From Candidatus Sysuiplasma superficiale (GTDB lineage Archaea; Thermoplasmatota; Thermoplasmata; Sysuiplasmatales; Sysuiplasmataceae): a DNA stretch of 64,000 bases. Made by a program: the position numbers and the translations under genes. The notes below the pieces were generated by a model. The model was not told where the DNA came from, searched no databases, and worked only from the letters and a program-made list of their open reading frames with translations. This document shows positions 4,638 to 55,844 of this stretch, in pieces. The DNA lies in contig JAGVSJ010000009.1 in the NCBI GenBank assembly GCA_019720975.1, positions 4,065 to 68,064 on the forward strand, in the 5' to 3' direction. Each line of letters begins with the position of its first letter. Within the stretch, counting starts at the first letter, position 1.

Positions 4638-5567
4638 GTGGCAACTTTCACTATCGGTATATGCGCCGTGGATGAGGCTGACAGTCTTCGTAGGCTCATT
4701 GGCGTAATCAACAGAGAGGAGATACCTGAGGGTATGGAGATAAGGGACATTGTAATCGTTGTCAGTGGTGGCTTTCGCTCTACGGAAAATGTTGCATTGT
4801 CCGAGCCGTCCAGGTATACAAAGAGGGTGTTTGTTGAAAGCTTGCGGAAAGGCAAGGCTGAGGCAATAAACCGCATCATGGCAAGCATGGAGGGCAGCAA
4901 CCTAATCCTTATAAATGCGGATGCTGAGCCTTCGTCCGGTGCAATAGGCCGCCTGATGGAAGCACTCCTGACCTCTGATTTTTCCATCGTTTGCGCAACA
5001 CCCTATCCTGCAAGCGCAGGCAAAGCCGGGAATTTTCCAGTGTATTCAATATGCAGATTCATGTGGGCACTCCATAATGCGACCATGAGTGTTCTCGGGA
5101 GCAGGGATCACAGAATACATCTTACAGATGAGATGATAGCCATCGGCGGGTCCGAAATAATTGCTCTTCCGGAGGATATCGTCAATGACGGTGCTTACCT
5201 CTCAGTCAGGGCGCAGATTGCAGGCAAAAAAATCACCTTTGCTGAGGATGCAAGGGTCACTGTAACTCCGCCTGCTTCAATCCGTGACTTCCTTAGGCAG
5301 AGAAGAAGGATCATCTACGGCCATATGCAGATTGAGAAGAACCTTGGCATTTTGCCAGCAACAGCAGAATTCACATTGCTGCACAGGCCATTTTCAGCGG
5401 CCGTCATATGGAAGGAATACATAAAGAAGTATCCACTGGAATCACTGGCACTTCCAGCGGCCATCATACTGGAATTGATATCAATGGCAGCAGCATTGAA
5501 GGACATTAGGAAACCACATAACCCTCACAGAATATGGCATAGGTCGATGCAAGTTTCTTGGAGATGA
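4638..5567 (+). CDS. glycosyltransferase family 2-like protein
   Basis: GT-A-like N-terminal half (FTIGICAVDEAD..., LILINADAEP as the DxD equivalent) and a QRRRIIYGH motif resembling the GT2 Q(R/Q)xRW. The ORF is open from 4536. TATA-like TTTATTAAAATAA at 4543-4555 lies inside that extension, so the first canonical start after it (GTG 4638) is preferred. Confidence 0.6.
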   Translation: MATFTIGICAVDEADSLRRLIGVINREEIPEGMEIRDIVIVVSGGFRSTENVALSEPSRYTKRVFVESLRKGKAEAINRIMASMEGSNLILINADAEPSSGAIGRLMEALLTSDFSIVCATPYPASAGKAGNFPVYSICRFMWALHNATMSVLGSRDHRIHLTDEMIAIGGSEIIALPEDIVNDGAYLSVRAQIAGKKITFAEDARVTVTPPASIRDFLRQRRRIIYGHMQIEKNLGILPATAEFTLLHRPFSAAVIWKEYIKKYPLESLALPAAIILELISMAAALKDIRKPHNPHRIWHRSMQVSWR

Positions 5568-10481: not shown

Positions 10482-10841
10482 GTGTACAGGAAGGAGGCGA
10501 TGGAGGCCAGAAGAATTGCAAGGGAGCGAATAGAGAAGCTATTCGGGCTTGCCAGGGATCTTGCGGCATCAGGTGAGAAGGAGAGGAGCAGGATGTACAT
10601 AATGCTTGCAAGGCGGATTGGTATGAAACTTGACATTCCACTGGGACACAGGAGGGAATACTGCAGGAAGTGCAATAGCTATCTCATACCCGGTAGGAAT
10701 GCAAGGGTCAGGATGGGGAGAAAGAAGGTTACTTTGACATGTCTTGAATGTGGAAAGGTGACAAGATTTCCATTTGGAACAAGGGAACGTGCAGGTAGAA
10801 GGGAAAGCAGCGAATACAGCGAGAAGGTGGTATTGCGATAG
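10482..10841 (+). CDS. rnp4: RNase P protein component 4 (Rpp21/Rpr2)
   Basis: Basic N-terminal helices followed by the zinc ribbon CRKCNSYLIPGRNARVRM...LTCLECG, characteristic of archaeal Rpp21. Confidence 0.8.
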   Translation: MYRKEAMEARRIARERIEKLFGLARDLAASGEKERSRMYIMLARRIGMKLDIPLGHRREYCRKCNSYLIPGRNARVRMGRKKVTLTCLECGKVTRFPFGTRERAGRRESSEYSEKVVLR

Positions 10842-11077
10842 ACAGAAGAGAGAGGGCGCTTGCTCATCACCTCAAGGCAACTGTCCTGATAGGAAAGAAG
10901 GGCGTAAGCGATGAGTCGAGAAAGGAGACGATGGCACAGGTGGAAAAGAGGGGGATGGTAAAGGTAAAGTTCAACAGCACTTCAGCTGATATTGATGCAT
11001 TCATAGAGAGCCTGTCTGAAAAGGCGGTGCTTGTGATGAGGACGGGGAGAACAGTTGTTCTGAAGAAGAGGAGATGA
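10838..11077 (+). CDS. YhbY/CRS1-like RNA-binding protein (no canonical start codon)
   Basis: My own translation of frame 2 from 10799 to the TGA at 11075-11077 gives ...IAIDRRERALAHHLKATVLIGKKGVSDESRKETMAQVEKRGMVKVKFNS...VLVMRTGRTVVLKKRR. This matches the YhbY pattern (AH.LKP.V.IGK.G......HELIKVK). It is absent from the ORF track because the first ATG (10931) lies after the conserved AHHLK...IGKKG segment. The candidate start ATA 10838 overlaps the Rpp21 TAG, forming ATAG. Confidence 0.6.
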   Translation: MDRRERALAHHLKATVLIGKKGVSDESRKETMAQVEKRGMVKVKFNSTSADIDAFIESLSEKAVLVMRTGRTVVLKKRR

Positions 11078-11081
11078 AAAC

Positions 11082-12362
11082 ATGCTGGACGCGAAATTCA
11101 TAAGGGACAACAAGGAAGCTGTCAGGGAATCCCTCCGCAACAGGCGCCGTGATACTTCAATACTCGATCGCTTCGAAATGCTCGATCAGAAGTGGAAGGT
11201 ACTTGTTGACAGGAGAAACACTCTCAACCGGATGCGGAATGAGAGCGCAATAAGGGTATCAAAACTTGTCGGGCAAGAGAAAGAAAGGGAGCTTGAAGAT
11301 GCCAGAAAACTGGCTTCTGAACTGAAAAGCGTTAATGAAGAAATAGAGATTGTGGAAAAGGAAAGGGAAGAGCTGCTCCTATATTTTCCGAACATACCGA
11401 GCAGGAAGACACCGGTTGGAAAGGATGAGAGCGAGAATGTCGTTGTCAGAGTACCGGTGCAACCGAAGAACCTTGACTTCAAGCCGCTGCCTCACTATGA
11501 GCTCTGTGATAGACTGGGAATACTTGACCTGAAACGGGGCGCAAAGATAACCGGAAGCGGCTTCTATGTTCTAAGAGGTGAAGGTGCAAGGCTTGAAAGA
11601 GCCCTCATAAACTATATGCTGGACAGACACAGAAAGCAAGGGTACACTGAAGTCCAGGTGCCGGTGATTGTGAGATCCAGGTGTGCCCTTGGAACAGGCC
11701 AGCTGCCTGAGAAACGTGACGATATGTACTGGATCGACGGGGAAGATTTGCTGCTGAATCCCACAGCAGAGGTGCCCGTAACAAATCTGCTGAACGAAGA
11801 GATCCTTTCACTGGAAGAGCTTCCGGTGTACTACACAGCCTATCTGCCTTCATTCAGAAAGGAGGCAGGGAGACACGTTGACCTTAAGGGCATAGGCAGG
11901 GTCCATGAATTCAACAAGGTCGAACTCGTGAAATTTGTTGAACCTGGAACAGCGGAGAAAGAACTGGAAAAACTTGTGGAAGATGCTGAAGAAATCGTAC
12001 GTGGGCTCGGCCTTCCATACAGGATAGTGCACCTATGCACAGGAGACCTGGGCTTTGCAAGTGAGGAAACATATGACATAGAGGTATATGCTCCAGGACT
12101 TGACAGCTGGCTCGAGGTTTCGTCCTGCAGTTCCTTCGGTGACTTTCAGGCCAGAAGGGCGCACATCAAGTTCAGGAGGGAGCCGCATCTCAAGAGCGAA
12201 TTTGTGGCAACGCTGAATGGCTCTGGCCTCGCACTGCCGAGGACATTTATTGGAGTGGTTGAGAATTATCAGACGAAGGAAGGAGACATTGAAATACCGG
12301 AGGTTCTCAGAGGGTACATGGGAGGGGATAGCATAATTTCAGTTGGTAAAAGTTTGAAGTGA
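11082..12362 (+). CDS. serS: seryl-tRNA synthetase
   Basis: N-terminal coiled-coil arm plus class II motifs (FRKEAG, GRVHEFNKVE, GSGLALPRT). Confidence 0.95.
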   Translation: MLDAKFIRDNKEAVRESLRNRRRDTSILDRFEMLDQKWKVLVDRRNTLNRMRNESAIRVSKLVGQEKERELEDARKLASELKSVNEEIEIVEKEREELLLYFPNIPSRKTPVGKDESENVVVRVPVQPKNLDFKPLPHYELCDRLGILDLKRGAKITGSGFYVLRGEGARLERALINYMLDRHRKQGYTEVQVPVIVRSRCALGTGQLPEKRDDMYWIDGEDLLLNPTAEVPVTNLLNEEILSLEELPVYYTAYLPSFRKEAGRHVDLKGIGRVHEFNKVELVKFVEPGTAEKELEKLVEDAEEIVRGLGLPYRIVHLCTGDLGFASEETYDIEVYAPGLDSWLEVSSCSSFGDFQARRAHIKFRREPHLKSEFVATLNGSGLALPRTFIGVVENYQTKEGDIEIPEVLRGYMGGDSIISVGKSLK

Positions 12363-36656: not shown

Positions 36657-38099
36657 TCACCTGTACTTGTAGTGGCCTTCGAAGATATTCTCACCAGGGG
36701 ACTTTATCTGATCTTTGACATATTTTTCGAATTCGAGCTCATCGAGATGGCGCGACGACTGTATCGAAATCGCATTATTCCACTTGTCCTCTATCTGGAA
36801 GCGCAACTTGTCACGTACCGCATCTATTGGTATCCTTGAAATTACAGGATCGAAGAAACCAAGGACAAGGAGTTTTTCCGCATCGTTCCTTTCTATCCCT
36901 CTGGTCTGAAGGTAGTAAAGCTGCTGTTCATCCATCTGGGAAACGGAGGCTGAATGTGTTGCCTTCACACCGTTTGTGAGTATCTCCAGCCCGGGTATCG
37001 CATCGCATTTTGAGTCCCTGCTCAACAGCATCCCGTGTTCAGCAAGGTAAGCGCTGGTATTGGATGCCTTTTCGCCTATCCTTATCATTCCGCGCAGGAG
37101 TGCCCTCGATCTGTCGCGCAGAACGCTTCTGACAGTGACCCTTCCACTTGTAGACTCCACATTGTGGTGCAGGTCTGTGACAATGTCAAACTTCTGTTTG
37201 CCTCCCGAAAAGAGTATTTCGTAATCATCTGTGGAAGCTCCCTGGCCCTCAAAATCTGTGTCAGACCTTGCCCTTGTTATGTCACCACCCATATAGCTTG
37301 AGACCCAGTGCATCCTGCTCTCACGCATTGCAATGGCACGTTTGTTTGAAAGATAGACAGTCCCAGCCGAGAGATTCTCAAGTGAAGCGTGATGCAGTTC
37401 AGCACCATGGGAAAGGTGGACGTCGGTTACGGAAGAGTAAAGGGACAGGCCGCTGACACCCTCCTCAGAATATATCTCTTCGATGACATTCGCGCTGCTT
37501 CCTTCCTCCAGACGAACTATGTTCTGGTGGAAGCCCGCCTTCCCCGCACCATTTTCTATGTATACCACATGAACTGGTGCTTCCAGATGCGTGTTTCTTG
37601 GAACATAGAGGAAATAGCCTGAGGTGAAGAAGGCGTTGTTCAGTGCAACGTATATGTCATCCTCCGGCTTAAGGCCCTTAAGCCTGAAGGATTCTTCTGC
37701 AATGTCGGCATGTTTTGCCACAGCATCCTTCATCTCCTCAAAAATGACGCCGCGTGGAAGAGATTTTGACCGGTAGAACGCACCACCATAGTGTATCATG
37801 AAGATACTCTTTCCCTCCTCACCCGCAAGCTCCACATACCTTTCCGGCACGGCTGGTAACTCCGAAGGCACTTTCGCGGGCGTGAGTCCGGAGGCGTCGA
37901 ATCTGGTAAGTGACTCATACTTTGTGTACAGTGGATTCGGTTCAGGCCTTGACTGGCGGAAAACAGCAAGGGAGCGTCTCCTGTACTCAGAAAGCCATGC
38001 GGGTTCCATGTTGAATGAGGGGAGCTCGGATTCTCCCGTGTTCATTATGTCCTGTGTCATTGCTGTCATGGCAGACTGGCACCTCCTTCGAAATTTCAC
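36657..38099 (-). CDS. sufD: Fe-S cluster assembly protein SufD
   Basis: SufB/SufD beta-helix family, lacking the SufB N-terminal Cys region. The GTG start overlaps the sufB stop (GTGA). Confidence 0.85.
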
Positions 38100-47612: not shown

Positions 47613-48596
47613 CTACTGTTCTGCAAGTATCTGGTCGAATCTGAAATCTGAAAAGGGCCTGGCACCGATTGCTATCTCAGCCTCTACGGGAGTGAGTATC
47701 GGTTTCGGATACCTCGCATAGTCGTCTATTGCAACACGTGGACAGACTGTCGAGGCGAACGCATCGAAACCGTATGAACCGATAAGTTCAGGAGTCACAA
47801 TGTTTGTCTGTATCAGAGCGGCAGATCTGCCTGCTGCCTTTATGCTTGCGAGGAGCTTTTCTGCAACAGTTCTTCTCCTCTGTCCGAGCTTTGAGCTCAC
47901 CAACACACCAAAGGTCTTCGCCTGCATTGCACGCTCGATTGCAACAAGCCGTTGTTTCATTATCACGTCGCGCAATGAGTCTATCTTTCTCACTGTTCCA
48001 TTCATGGGATTTGCACAGACGAGAGGCCTTTCGCTCAAAACAGCCAGGCCGATGGGATGAAAGTCGCCATCCCCCACATACAGGAACATATCCACCCTGT
48101 CCTCGATATCTAGCCCGGCACTGTAATCACACCCCAGAAGCTGTGCAGGACTGTCAAGACGCATGTCCCCTCTTGAATAGATTGCATTGATCCCTTCCCC
48201 TTCAAGGAATGAGACGATAGATGAGATATGATGGATATGCTGGGCAGTGGTGACCAGACCGACAGTGCCACGAAGCATGGGCAGTGCTTGCCTGACGACA
48301 TATACAGGGTCTATGTCAACAAGGATGTTGGCGAAATACATCTTTGGAATCGCACCGATAGAGGGCATTCTGGTGTGCCCTATCTGAATAATGACGTCGG
48401 AAATGCCGAAGAGATGCACTGGTATATCACATGCGCCGAAACAGGGGTCGGAATCGATAACAACTTCCGCAGATGATATCATGCCTATGCGAGAGGCTAT
48501 TTCCTGCCCAAATGTTTTCAGACCTTCGGGCAGCTGGAGGGCAATGCGCTTTGCACCTCTTGATCTGGCGAATGCACCTATTGCATCATAATCAAT
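47613..48596 (-). CDS. dph2: 2-(3-amino-3-carboxypropyl)histidine synthase (diphthamide synthesis)
   Basis: Dph2 pattern (DPCFGACD, IQIGHTRM, three-domain repeat). The ORF track starts at ATG 48482. My translation of the same frame upstream gives IDYDAIGAFARSRGAKRIALQLPEGLKTFGQEIASRIG, matching the conserved Dph2 N-terminus (compare Pyrococcus ...RIGAKRVLIQSPEGL). There is no ATG/GTG/TTG in that stretch, so the start is provisionally placed at ATT 48596. Confidence 0.75.
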   Translation of the reverse strand: MDYDAIGAFARSRGAKRIALQLPEGLKTFGQEIASRIGMISSAEVVIDSDPCFGACDIPVHLFGISDVIIQIGHTRMPSIGAIPKMYFANILVDIDPVYVVRQALPMLRGTVGLVTTAQHIHHISSIVSFLEGEGINAIYSRGDMRLDSPAQLLGCDYSAGLDIEDRVDMFLYVGDGDFHPIGLAVLSERPLVCANPMNGTVRKIDSLRDVIMKQRLVAIERAMQAKTFGVLVSSKLGQRRRTVAEKLLASIKAAGRSAALIQTNIVTPELIGSYGFDAFASTVCPRVAIDDYARYPKPILTPVEAEIAIGARPFSDFRFDQILAEQ

Positions 48597-48906
48597 GAGA
48601 AGCTTTGAACCGTTTACGACAGGACTGTATACCGTTTTGCCACCACTACGCCATTTGTCAGAACTGAATTTAAGTTAAAGCTTTGTATCGGAAGTAACTG
48701 TTTTTTTGTGGCGGAAGCTTCATTGGACCGTATAATGGCACGCGGGTTTCCTCCGTCCATACAGAACACTGTAAACCCTTTCACTTTATCCGGCGTTTGT
48801 TCTTCGCATCGCTGGGATCTGACGGATATGAGGAATCTGACGCCTGTACGGACTGATACAGTATTGACTGTAACAGTTAAATCGACTCATGTTATCCTGC
48901 AAGAGT

Positions 48907-54230: not shown

Positions 54231-54467
54231 TTGTTGAAGGCATATATGGTTACGGGAAAATTCAAGGTATCAGATAGACAGTGGCAGTCTTTCAACATAG
54301 AGGTTGCCTCGGCCAGTGAAGATGGTGCAGCGGAAAAGATAAGGACACTGCTGGGAAGCAGACACAGGGTTCCTCGGAGGCTAATAACCATAGAGAGGAT
54401 CGCTGAGCTGGAAGAAGGTAGTATCGAAGACAATGTGGTGAAGTATCAGGTTGGTGCGAAAGCTTGA
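54231..54467 (+). CDS. rplX: 50S ribosomal protein LX (L18Ae/L20A family)
   Basis: KAYMVTGKFKVSDRQWQSFNIEV...LGSRHRV pattern, and the conserved archaeal LX-pfdA-ftsY gene order. TTG start after GAAGGTGTGA. Confidence 0.8.
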   Translation: MLKAYMVTGKFKVSDRQWQSFNIEVASASEDGAAEKIRTLLGSRHRVPRRLITIERIAELEEGSIEDNVVKYQVGAKA

Positions 54468-54896: not shown

Positions 54897-55844
54897 ATGT
54901 TTTCCGCCCTGAAGCGGCGACTCGGATTGTTAAAGCAGAGTTCGTCAGGCAGAGATGCCTCCACGGCGATAGGGGAGGAGGGCAGAAAGATAAAGGACGA
55001 TCAGCTCGATGAGATATGCTGGGAGCTGGAACTGGGGCTTCTTGAATCAGATGTTGCACAAACCGTTGCCTCAAAAATAATCGAGGGAATGAAGAACGAG
55101 CTCCGCGGAAAAAGGATTGCGAAGGGGCATGATCTCTCGGAAGCTGTTGGGAATGCGCTGAGGGACACCGTGGAGAATATACTTTCAGCACACACGATTG
55201 ATTTTGACAGCGTGATCAAAGGGTTGAGGAGGCCAACAGTCATCATGTTTGTAGGCATAAACGGCACTGGGAAAACAACTGTGGTGGCGAAGATGGCGAA
55301 GATGCTCAGACAGGAGGGGTACACACTCGTCATTGCAGCTGGGGATACATTCAGGGCGGGAGCGATTGAACAGCTGAAGACGCATGGAAGAGCCCTCGAC
55401 ATCCATGTGGTGGCGCATGAACACGGAGGCGACGCCGCCGCTGTTGCGTTTGACGCCGTGGAGCATGCTCGTGCGAGGCACCGTGATTTCGTCCTCATCG
55501 ACACTGCGGGGAGGATGCAGACAAACAGCAATCTGATGGATGAGATGAAGAAGATCAAGAGGGTCGCTGAACCGGACATAACTGTCTTTGTCGGCGACGC
55601 ACTAGCAGGGAACGACATGATAGAGCAGGCCAGAAAGTTCAACGAGGCTGTTGGTGTTGACATGGTGATACTCACAAAAATAGATGCGGATGCACGCGGA
55701 GGCAGTGCGCTCTCTGTCGCTGATGCCATCGGCAAACCCGTTGTTTTCCTCGGCACTGGACAGAAATACGAGGATCTGATACCTTTTAATCCCAAATGGA
55801 TGGCAGAGAGGCTGGTAAGCCCAGAACAGCAGGGCGGGGCGTGA
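54897..55844 (+). CDS. ftsY: signal recognition particle receptor FtsY
   Basis: SRP GTPase motifs GINGTGKTT, DTAGR and TKIDADARGG, plus the N domain. Confidence 0.93.
   Translation: MFSALKRRLGLLKQSSSGRDASTAIGEEGRKIKDDQLDEICWELELGLLESDVAQTVASKIIEGMKNELRGKRIAKGHDLSEAVGNALRDTVENILSAHTIDFDSVIKGLRRPTVIMFVGINGTGKTTVVAKMAKMLRQEGYTLVIAAGDTFRAGAIEQLKTHGRALDIHVVAHEHGGDAAAVAFDAVEHARARHRDFVLIDTAGRMQTNSNLMDEMKKIKRVAEPDITVFVGDALAGNDMIEQARKFNEAVGVDMVILTKIDADARGGSALSVADAIGKPVVFLGTGQKYEDLIPFNPKWMAERLVSPEQQGGA

Follow-up and report, generated by a model that had tools for sequence, protein, structure and literature searches.

We analyzed a 64,000-nucleotide (nt) stretch of Candidatus Sysuiplasma superficiale DNA (the window), corresponding to positions 4065-68064 of contig C90 in a 2.06-Mb metagenome-assembled genome (MAG; G000; 100 contigs, 95% complete). 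Three genes follow one another here on the forward strand: Rpp21 (RNase P protein component 4), a YhbY/CRM-domain gene and the gene for seryl-tRNA synthetase (SerRS) (Table 1). The YhbY gene is the subject of this report: its frame offers no usable ATG, GTG or TTG, and it probably starts instead at a near-cognate ATA that overlaps the Rpp21 stop codon.

The YhbY frame is open from 10799, directly after a TAG at 10796-10798, to the TGA at 11075-11077, and encodes 92 residues. A first-pass annotation made from the letters of the window had read this frame as a YhbY/CRS1 domain, and the reading holds: the Pfam profile PF01985 (CRS1_YhbY) matches it with an E-value of 2.5e-11 (44.2 bits against a cut-off of 27). 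The alignment runs from residue 18 to residue 88 and takes in positions 9-82 of the 84-position profile; no second PF01985 match occurs in the whole 2.06-Mb genome. An AlphaFold2 model, built from an alignment of nine family YhbY orthologues (alignment A1) with an 81-amino-acid (aa) query that spans 10832-11074 (two codons 5' of the proposed start, then the proposed protein), reached a predicted local distance difference test score (pLDDT) of 87.5. The modeled order of helix 5-13, strand 16-20, helix 27-40, strand 42-47, helix 51-61 and strands 65-71 and 74-79 is the alpha/beta YhbY fold (helix-strand-helix-strand-helix-strand-strand). The best Foldseek matches of the model are E. coli YhbY (1LN4), HI1333 (1JO0) and SAV1595 (1RQ8), with a probability of 1.00 and a template-modeling (TM) score of 0.77; a sequence profile search returns the identical three entries, and ranks 6-14 of the Foldseek list carry the C-terminal domain fold of initiation factor IF3. 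The archaeal protein shares with these three CRM proteins its fold, its size class and the GxxG loop after strand 1, present here as I-G-K-K-G with G21, K22 and G24 invariant in A1, whereas it is ~4 residues shorter at the N-terminus and its gene is linked to Rpp21. The frame is intact in 9/9 genomes. Judged from this comparison and the model, YhbY is a real gene under selection, predicted to encode a complete, functional CRM-domain protein of 79 aa.

The sole ATG, GTG or TTG in the frame is the ATG at 10931, from which only 48 aa would be made. Such a product would be without helix 1, strand 1 and the GKxG loop, and of the columns invariant in A1 (19 in all), seven (A11, L14, T17, G21, K22, G24 and E32) precede this ATG; none of the relatives' codons aligned to this ATG is a start codon. 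Since the ATG lies inside helix 2, with conserved columns upstream of it, it is not a plausible YhbY start, as the first-pass annotation had also argued from the loss of the conserved segment. With no usable canonical start left in the frame, a near-cognate codon is required. Public gene calls reflect this difficulty, much as had been anticipated for automatic annotation: three N-termini are on record, giving proteins of 87 aa (from an ATA at 10814), 62 aa (from an ATA at 10889) and 48 aa (from the ATG), and 0/3 lie at the homologous start.

The best candidate is the ATA at 10838-10840. As had been noted at first pass, it shares a 4-nt ATAG with the Rpp21 stop TAG at 10839-10841 on the same strand; no canonical start codon lies in this overlap. 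The Shine-Dalgarno (SD)-like element in the last Rpp21 codons, AAGGTGGT, pairs with the 16S rRNA 3' end (...GGATCACCTCCT) with a duplex energy of -9.9 kcal/mol, and it places GGTG at -12 from the ATA, with a 6-nt spacer after GGTGGT. Among 1022 first ATGs of G000 that served as a reference set, GGTG peaks at -9 (43 cases), -11 (29) and -12 (21, with a background of ~3), and GAGG at -11 (49), so that the ATA has its GGTG at the third commonest position. We refer below to an exact GGTG or GAGG at these empirically enriched offsets as a strict SD. Each of the nine family YhbY orthologues carries an SD-like element at the corresponding register.

Comparison of the orthologous junctions, which had been proposed as a check, was carried out in nine of the ten species genomes of the family (G000 included); a scan of metagenome contigs for further close relatives of the genus found none. 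The YhbY proteins of the other three genus species (G001, G002 and G003) are 49-61% identical, and all three junctions keep CGATAGA, read as CGA TAG in the Rpp21 frame and as ATA GA(C/A) in the YhbY frame; the ATA is thus found in 4/4 genus species. G001 and G002 have no ATG, GTG or TTG before the conserved A-x-x-L-K-A-T-V-x-x-G-K-x-G of YhbY, and in G001 the frame is closed six codons 5' of the ATA, which bounds the position of the start. The ATA falls in column 3 of A1, where the sister genus has ATG (L010, G007) or GTG (L006, G009). There, Rpp21 and YhbY lie in one frame with a single stop between them, and GTG (G009), TTG (G005) or ATG (G007) occurs within three codons of the Rpp21 stop. 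Rpp21-YhbY adjacency is kept in 11/12 more distant loci inspected within the class, where YhbY mostly has a plain ATG. Given these canonical starts across the class and in the sister genus, the ancestral state at the YhbY position is, on present alignments, a canonical start, in place of which the genus carries ATA. We envision that a single G-to-A change in the genus ancestor, from ATGG to ATAG, would have made a stop for a frame-shifted, longer Rpp21 tail at the cost of the YhbY ATG; the Rpp21 tail of the genus is ~12 aa longer and ends exactly at the junction TAG.

Two further sister-genus genomes, G008 (L007, ~1237-1250) and G006 (L008, 493-505), have YhbY in the same frame after the Rpp21 TAA without any ATG, GTG or TTG. 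Their junction reads GGGGAT TAA ACG GCA GCA, with a GGGG/GGTG-like element at -9 from the ACG; the start in these two genomes is likely the ACG directly after the stop, with stop readthrough as the alternative there.

Taken together, conservation, the alignment and the SD element make ATA 10838 the probable start of YhbY, an assignment that we make with some reserve because a number of observations speak against it. ATA, TAG and CGA are locked together by dual coding, so that conservation of the ATA alone is no proof of a start codon. In the genome as a whole, ATA shows no enrichment behind the SD (8/373, below background), and only CTG and ACG do. In G001, G002 and G003 the codon directly 5' of the ATA is an ACG, which has the preferred -9 spacing and might be the start in these three species; the corresponding codon in G000 is GCG. 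G003 also has an ATG four codons 3' of the ATA. Finally, near-cognate codons are cited as initiating at ~1% of the ATG level or less in model organisms (Hecht et al. 2017, as cited in PMC10666635).

Among the alternatives, a start at some other non-canonical codon survives best, although we consider it unlikely. The ATT at 10832, which the first-pass annotation had offered as the other near-cognate option, is in frame, but its GGTG would fall at -6, a position found at 3/1022 ATG starts, and the ATT is missing from G002 and G003; it is accordingly disfavored. ATA 10814 is likewise in frame, but the duplex check against the 16S 3' end found no SD for it, and its equivalent lies outside the open frame in G001. 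The relatives' ACG has in its favor, besides its spacing, that ACG is supported as a start elsewhere in G000, but the GCG that G000 carries at this position is two mismatches from AUG. A fusion of Rpp21 and YhbY by programmed -1 frameshifting at the Rpp21 stop, which would leave YhbY without a start of its own, is very improbable. The two frames do differ by -1, and the single-frame arrangement of the sister genus, together with the missing canonical starts of G006 and G008, also counts in its favor; however, 0/4 genus species have a slippery X-XXY-YYZ heptamer before CGA TAG, the frame relation varies from genus to genus and within the class, a plain ATG is what most class members have for YhbY, the SD is conserved at start-codon distance, and three sister-genus genomes place GTG, TTG or ATG right after the stop. 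Slightly less credible still is a decaying YhbY that yields a 48-aa fragment from ATG 10931 or no product: callers of the Prodigal type do output this fragment, but it would begin inside helix 2 and forgo the seven invariant columns, and the gene is the sole copy in its genome, with a frame intact in all nine genomes compared. A sequencing or assembly error, whether indel or substitution, that masks a normal start can be set aside almost entirely, even for a MAG in which one gene at least, that of the large subunit of carbamoyl-phosphate synthase, is split by a frameshift, since the junction is the same in three other species and, over 600 nt, in three independent assemblies (Logan SRR7275283, with two single-nucleotide differences, both outside the junction, and GCA_023379425.1 and GCA_023484865.1, with zero differences). 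The sister genus does carry ATG or GTG at the homologous position, the pattern that would have pointed to such an error had it not been for these same-genus species and assemblies. Separately, pyrrolysine-type readthrough of the TAG is irrelevant here: it would remain in the Rpp21 frame and end 15 codons on.

Returning to ATA 10838 as the start, we propose that the small ribosomal subunit would be set at the AUA by the SD AAGGUGGU in the last Rpp21 codons, and that an initiator tRNA(CAU) would read the AUA with a third-position mismatch and supply an N-terminal Met. Ribosomes finishing Rpp21 at the overlapping UAG may assist, the AUAG geometry being that of AUGA overlaps. The seven start/stop overlaps to which the first-pass annotation had likened this junction are all found in the window (ATGA at 5564, 34428 and 46312; TTGA at 54464; GTGA at 55841; minus-strand GTGA at 38099 and 40975). 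Its proposal of termination-reinitiation on a near-cognate ATA stands as regards the near-cognate start; reinitiation itself is possible, allowed by the geometry, and not needed. Other near-cognate starts in G000 have no upstream overlap, as the ACG of Dph2 is the first in its unit, and the CTG of L31e and the ATA of the nucleotidyltransferase come after the upstream stop. Together with the normal SD distance at YhbY, this suggests that ordinary SD-guided initiation at a weak codon would suffice.

We found no mechanistic cause of the near-cognate habit in either aIF1 presence or the initiator tRNA anticodon. A search for an unusual initiator tRNA (aragorn) gave three CAT tRNAs and no TAT anticodon; one CAT tRNA has the archaeal initiator hallmarks (A1 and a GGG/CCC anticodon stem). 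This initiator-type tRNA (G000:C57:22179-22267, minus strand) carries a 13-nt intron adjoining the anticodon loop. Loss of aIF1 was considered and rejected: PF01253 is present in G000 and in 7/9 family genomes, and the two without a match are 69-85% complete.

Upstream of YhbY, the Rpp21 assignment is supported by a PF04032 match (E-value 3.9e-13; 49.9 bits against a cut-off of 29.3) and by the two CxxC pairs of a zinc ribbon in the translation (C-R-K-C and C-L-E-C). Its N-terminus from the GTG, V-Y-R-(K/R)-E, is kept in all family orthologues, and family relatives (L003-L010) have a similar A/T box that is identically spaced from their conserved GTG-TAC-AG(G/A) start. The TATA-like box is a putative promoter, and a conserved GTG ~21 nt after it suggests a leaderless transcript; Rpp21-YhbY(-SerRS) probably form one tightly packed transcription unit, leaderless or nearly so.

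Table 1. Features of the Rpp21-YhbY-SerRS locus (window coordinates) and further G000 genes with a Pfam domain that begins upstream of the first canonical start
Feature	Position or locus	Strand	Basis and remarks
TATA-like box TATTTAAA	10453..10460	+	21 nt 5' of Rpp21 GTG; direct reading
Rpp21 (RNase P protein component 4), 119 aa	10482..10841	+	GTG start, TAG stop; PF04032
SD-like element AAGGTGGT	10824..10831	+	Within Rpp21 3' end; complementarity to 16S 3' end
Proposed AUA start of YhbY	10838..10840	+	Conservation, alignment, SD
Proposed YhbY/CRM-domain gene, 79 aa + TGA (11075-11077)	10838..11077	+	PF01985, AlphaFold2, Foldseek
Conserved start-less segment (helix 1, strand 1, GKxG loop, half of helix 2)	10838..10930	+	A1 and model
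Only canonical start, ATG	10931..10933	+	Model residue 34, inside helix 2; frame and AlphaFold2
SD-like element GGAGATGA	11070..11077	+	Includes YhbY stop; 4 nt 5' of SerRS ATG; duplex -9.3 kcal/mol
SerRS, cluster gene 3	11082..12362	+	PF02403 and PF00587
Dph2	47613..48635	minus	Domain upstream (Pfam); start column: G000 ACG, ATG in eight relatives
L31e	G000:C79 (L081)		Domain upstream (Pfam); start column: G000 CTG behind AAGGTGATC, ATG in three relatives, TTG in G005
HemC	G000:C35 (L075)		Domain upstream (Pfam); start column: G000 ATA, G001 ATC, G002 ATA, canonical in G003, G005, G007
NAPRT	G000:C8:12426-13628 (L062); family loci L139-L146		Domain upstream (Pfam); start column: GGTGAA ATT CTG (AAG)
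Nucleotidyltransferase	G000:C57 (L086)		Domain upstream (Pfam); start column: G000 ATA behind GAGGTGAT, ATG in four relatives, CTG in G005
Epimerase	G000:C44 (L058)		Rossmann motif upstream (Pfam); start column: G000 CTG behind GAGGTG, ATG in sister-genus orthologues
SAHH	G000:C4:7385-8638 (L073)		Domain upstream (Pfam)
Two ABC ATPases			Pfam; Walker A upstream in one, margin of only 3 codons in the other
ABC_membrane, amino-acid permease			Domain upstream (Pfam)
SMC-like protein, ChsH2-like protein			Domain upstream (Pfam)

YhbY is not an isolated case. We defined an extension as the codons from the upstream stop to the first ATG, GTG or TTG and scored the extensions of 1805 open-reading-frame-defined genes of G000 with a hexamer coding model: 41 genes (2.3%) have an extension of at least 15 codons that scores as coding. 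A Pfam run on the stop-to-stop translations of extension genes placed the domain start upstream of the first canonical start in at least 13 G000 genes besides YhbY (Table 1), and at least 14 genes of G000, YhbY being one, thus appear to start at near-cognate codons. The evidence for these starts is comparative throughout. A strict SD stands before 8/14 of the proposed starts against a background of 4.25% (binomial p = 2.5e-8), a figure that is somewhat optimistic and to that extent weakens the case, some of the 14 choices having been guided partly by the SD. The strict definition replaced one based on duplex energy, which was too permissive and passed 6.6% of in-gene codons. When all 61 sense codons in extensions were ranked by SD enrichment, CTG (28/348, p = 2e-4) and ACG (16/172, p = 1e-3) came out as the top two. 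As a general start ATA was rejected on this count and enters only through individual cases, namely YhbY, the nucleotidyltransferase, HemC and two ABC proteins.

The start columns of several of these genes resemble that of YhbY in having a near-cognate codon in G000 where relatives carry a canonical one. For Dph2, the ACG at 48635-48633 stands behind a GGTG at -9, and a start at the first canonical ATG (48482) would fall 17 residues into the Pfam domain. Six independent Logan assemblies, made from six runs, agree exactly over the ACG region; as this gene comes first in its transcription unit, no reinitiation is involved. In NAPRT (nicotinate phosphoribosyltransferase), the motif GGTGAA-ATT-CTG without a canonical start recurs in 8/9 of the family genomes aligned, G001 having GGTGGA ACT CTG and G003 differing, and the G002 frame has a stop directly before the motif. 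The pattern suggests that CTG (or ATT) serves as the start throughout the family.

Two candidates were set aside. DedA has no Pfam support upstream of its ATG, its VTT domain running from residue 36 and its first canonical start lying at 27. The carbamoyl-phosphate synthase large subunit (G000:C68:61150-64539, L066) has a frameshift, not a near-cognate start: it is split by a 1-nt shift within the conserved A-A-E-F-D-(Y/F)-S-G (GAATTTCGAC), either an assembly indel or real. The MAG is therefore not free of indels, and start-less open reading frames are not all near-cognate starts. In SAHH (S-adenosylhomocysteine hydrolase), an ATC comes right after a TAA, with an out-of-frame ATG GTG 4 nt downstream; an indel near the start and an ATC start are equally likely here.

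For comparison, the same pipeline was applied to 800 kb of a same-class control (a complete genome, 1,486,778 bp, 39% GC) and to 400 kb of the same-genus G001. Coding extensions number 41/1805 (2.3%) in G000, 14/364 (3.9%) in G001 and 6/817 (0.7%) in the control, making them ~3-5 times commoner than in this one control genome (G000 and G001 pooled against the control, p = 7e-4). Pfam-supported start-less genes number 14, at least 5 (including the Cdc48 N-domain) and 2-3 (including the CCA-adding enzyme), respectively; taken alone, these counts (19/2169 versus 3/817) do not differ significantly (p = 0.11). The near-cognate habit is thus enriched here and probably not confined to the family, and annotation may underestimate how common near-cognate starts are among archaea.

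Two individual genes in these genomes are of note. In the Cdc48/VCP gene of G001 (G001:C1:177029-179263, L195), 124 codons without ATG, GTG or TTG span the whole CDC48_N domain (Pfam 25-107); two possible starts are close by, an ATG that is out of frame and an ACG ~8 codons 5' of the conserved L-K-V-V-E. In the CCA-adding enzyme of the control (G021:C1, L171:14608-15960, minus strand), the nucleotidyltransferase domain begins at residue 40 and the first canonical start is codon 57, with a candidate ATC start that has GAGG at -11.

NCBI translation table 11 lists ATA, ATT, ATC and CTG as alternative initiators, an entry based on few bacterial cases, so that ATA is formally allowed; to our knowledge, however, common gene finders accept ATG, GTG and TTG only, and we know of hardly any documentation of conserved main starts other than AUG, GUG or UUG in archaea. 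The closest precedents are the AUU start codons of E. coli infC, which encodes IF3, and of pcnB; through the infC AUU, IF3 has been demonstrated to regulate its own gene, and the start-proofreading role of IF3 is filled in archaea by aIF1. Like infC, YhbY is a conserved gene whose main start would depart from AUG at the third position, stand behind an SD and be kept across species. Unlike infC, it has an archaeal host and an AUA codon.

The junction also resembles the ATGA-type gene pairs of Haloferax volcanii and E. coli, with both genes on the same strand, a 4-nt overlap and an SD within the final codons of the first gene, whereas the tested pairs start with ATG, GTG or TTG and the Rpp21/YhbY overlap is an ATAG with a near-cognate start. 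Termination-reinitiation in these two organisms requires overlaps or very short gaps and was studied with canonical starts only (PMC10666635). Archaeal ribosomes do initiate at such codons: harringtonine ribosome profiling of H. volcanii gave putative alternative initiation sites of which ~30% were near-cognate, and the authors set these aside (PMC7261190). Those sites are alternative or minor ones; YhbY, by contrast, is conserved and single-copy, has no start available other than a near-cognate codon, and keeps this codon across species. In Sulfolobus, aIF1 is cited as discriminating against non-canonical starts (cited in PMC6237735).

It is possible, though we would stop short of calling it probable, that the Sysuiplasmataceae-like family has a relaxed start choice in which CUG, ACG, AUA and AUC behind GGAGGUGAU-type SD elements serve as regular, heritable starts of ~1-3% of genes, including essential ones such as L31e, Dph2, HemC and, in a sister species, Cdc48. 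If so, this would imply either a lineage-specific change in initiation fidelity, through aIF1, aIF2, the initiator tRNA or its modification, or weak starts that are used systematically to set expression levels. For YhbY itself, the fold that it shares with the IF3 C-terminal domain invites the speculation that its weak AUA start might act as a feedback sensor, by analogy with the AUU of infC.

YhbY offers a clean and bounded case: the gene is single-copy, its start is narrowed to a few codons, and the distance of its SD has been measured. The proposed starts predict testable N-termini; L31e, for instance, would begin Met-Ala-Glu-Glu-Glu-Val-Ser-Thr. Gene finders limited to ATG, GTG and TTG truncate or miss such proteins in MAGs, and the truncation strips catalytic or binding N-termini (Rossmann, Walker A) and skews pangenome and metabolic inference. 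Should the habit prove lineage-wide, the family would provide a natural system for start-codon fidelity in the aIF1/aIF2 machinery that archaea share with eukaryotes.

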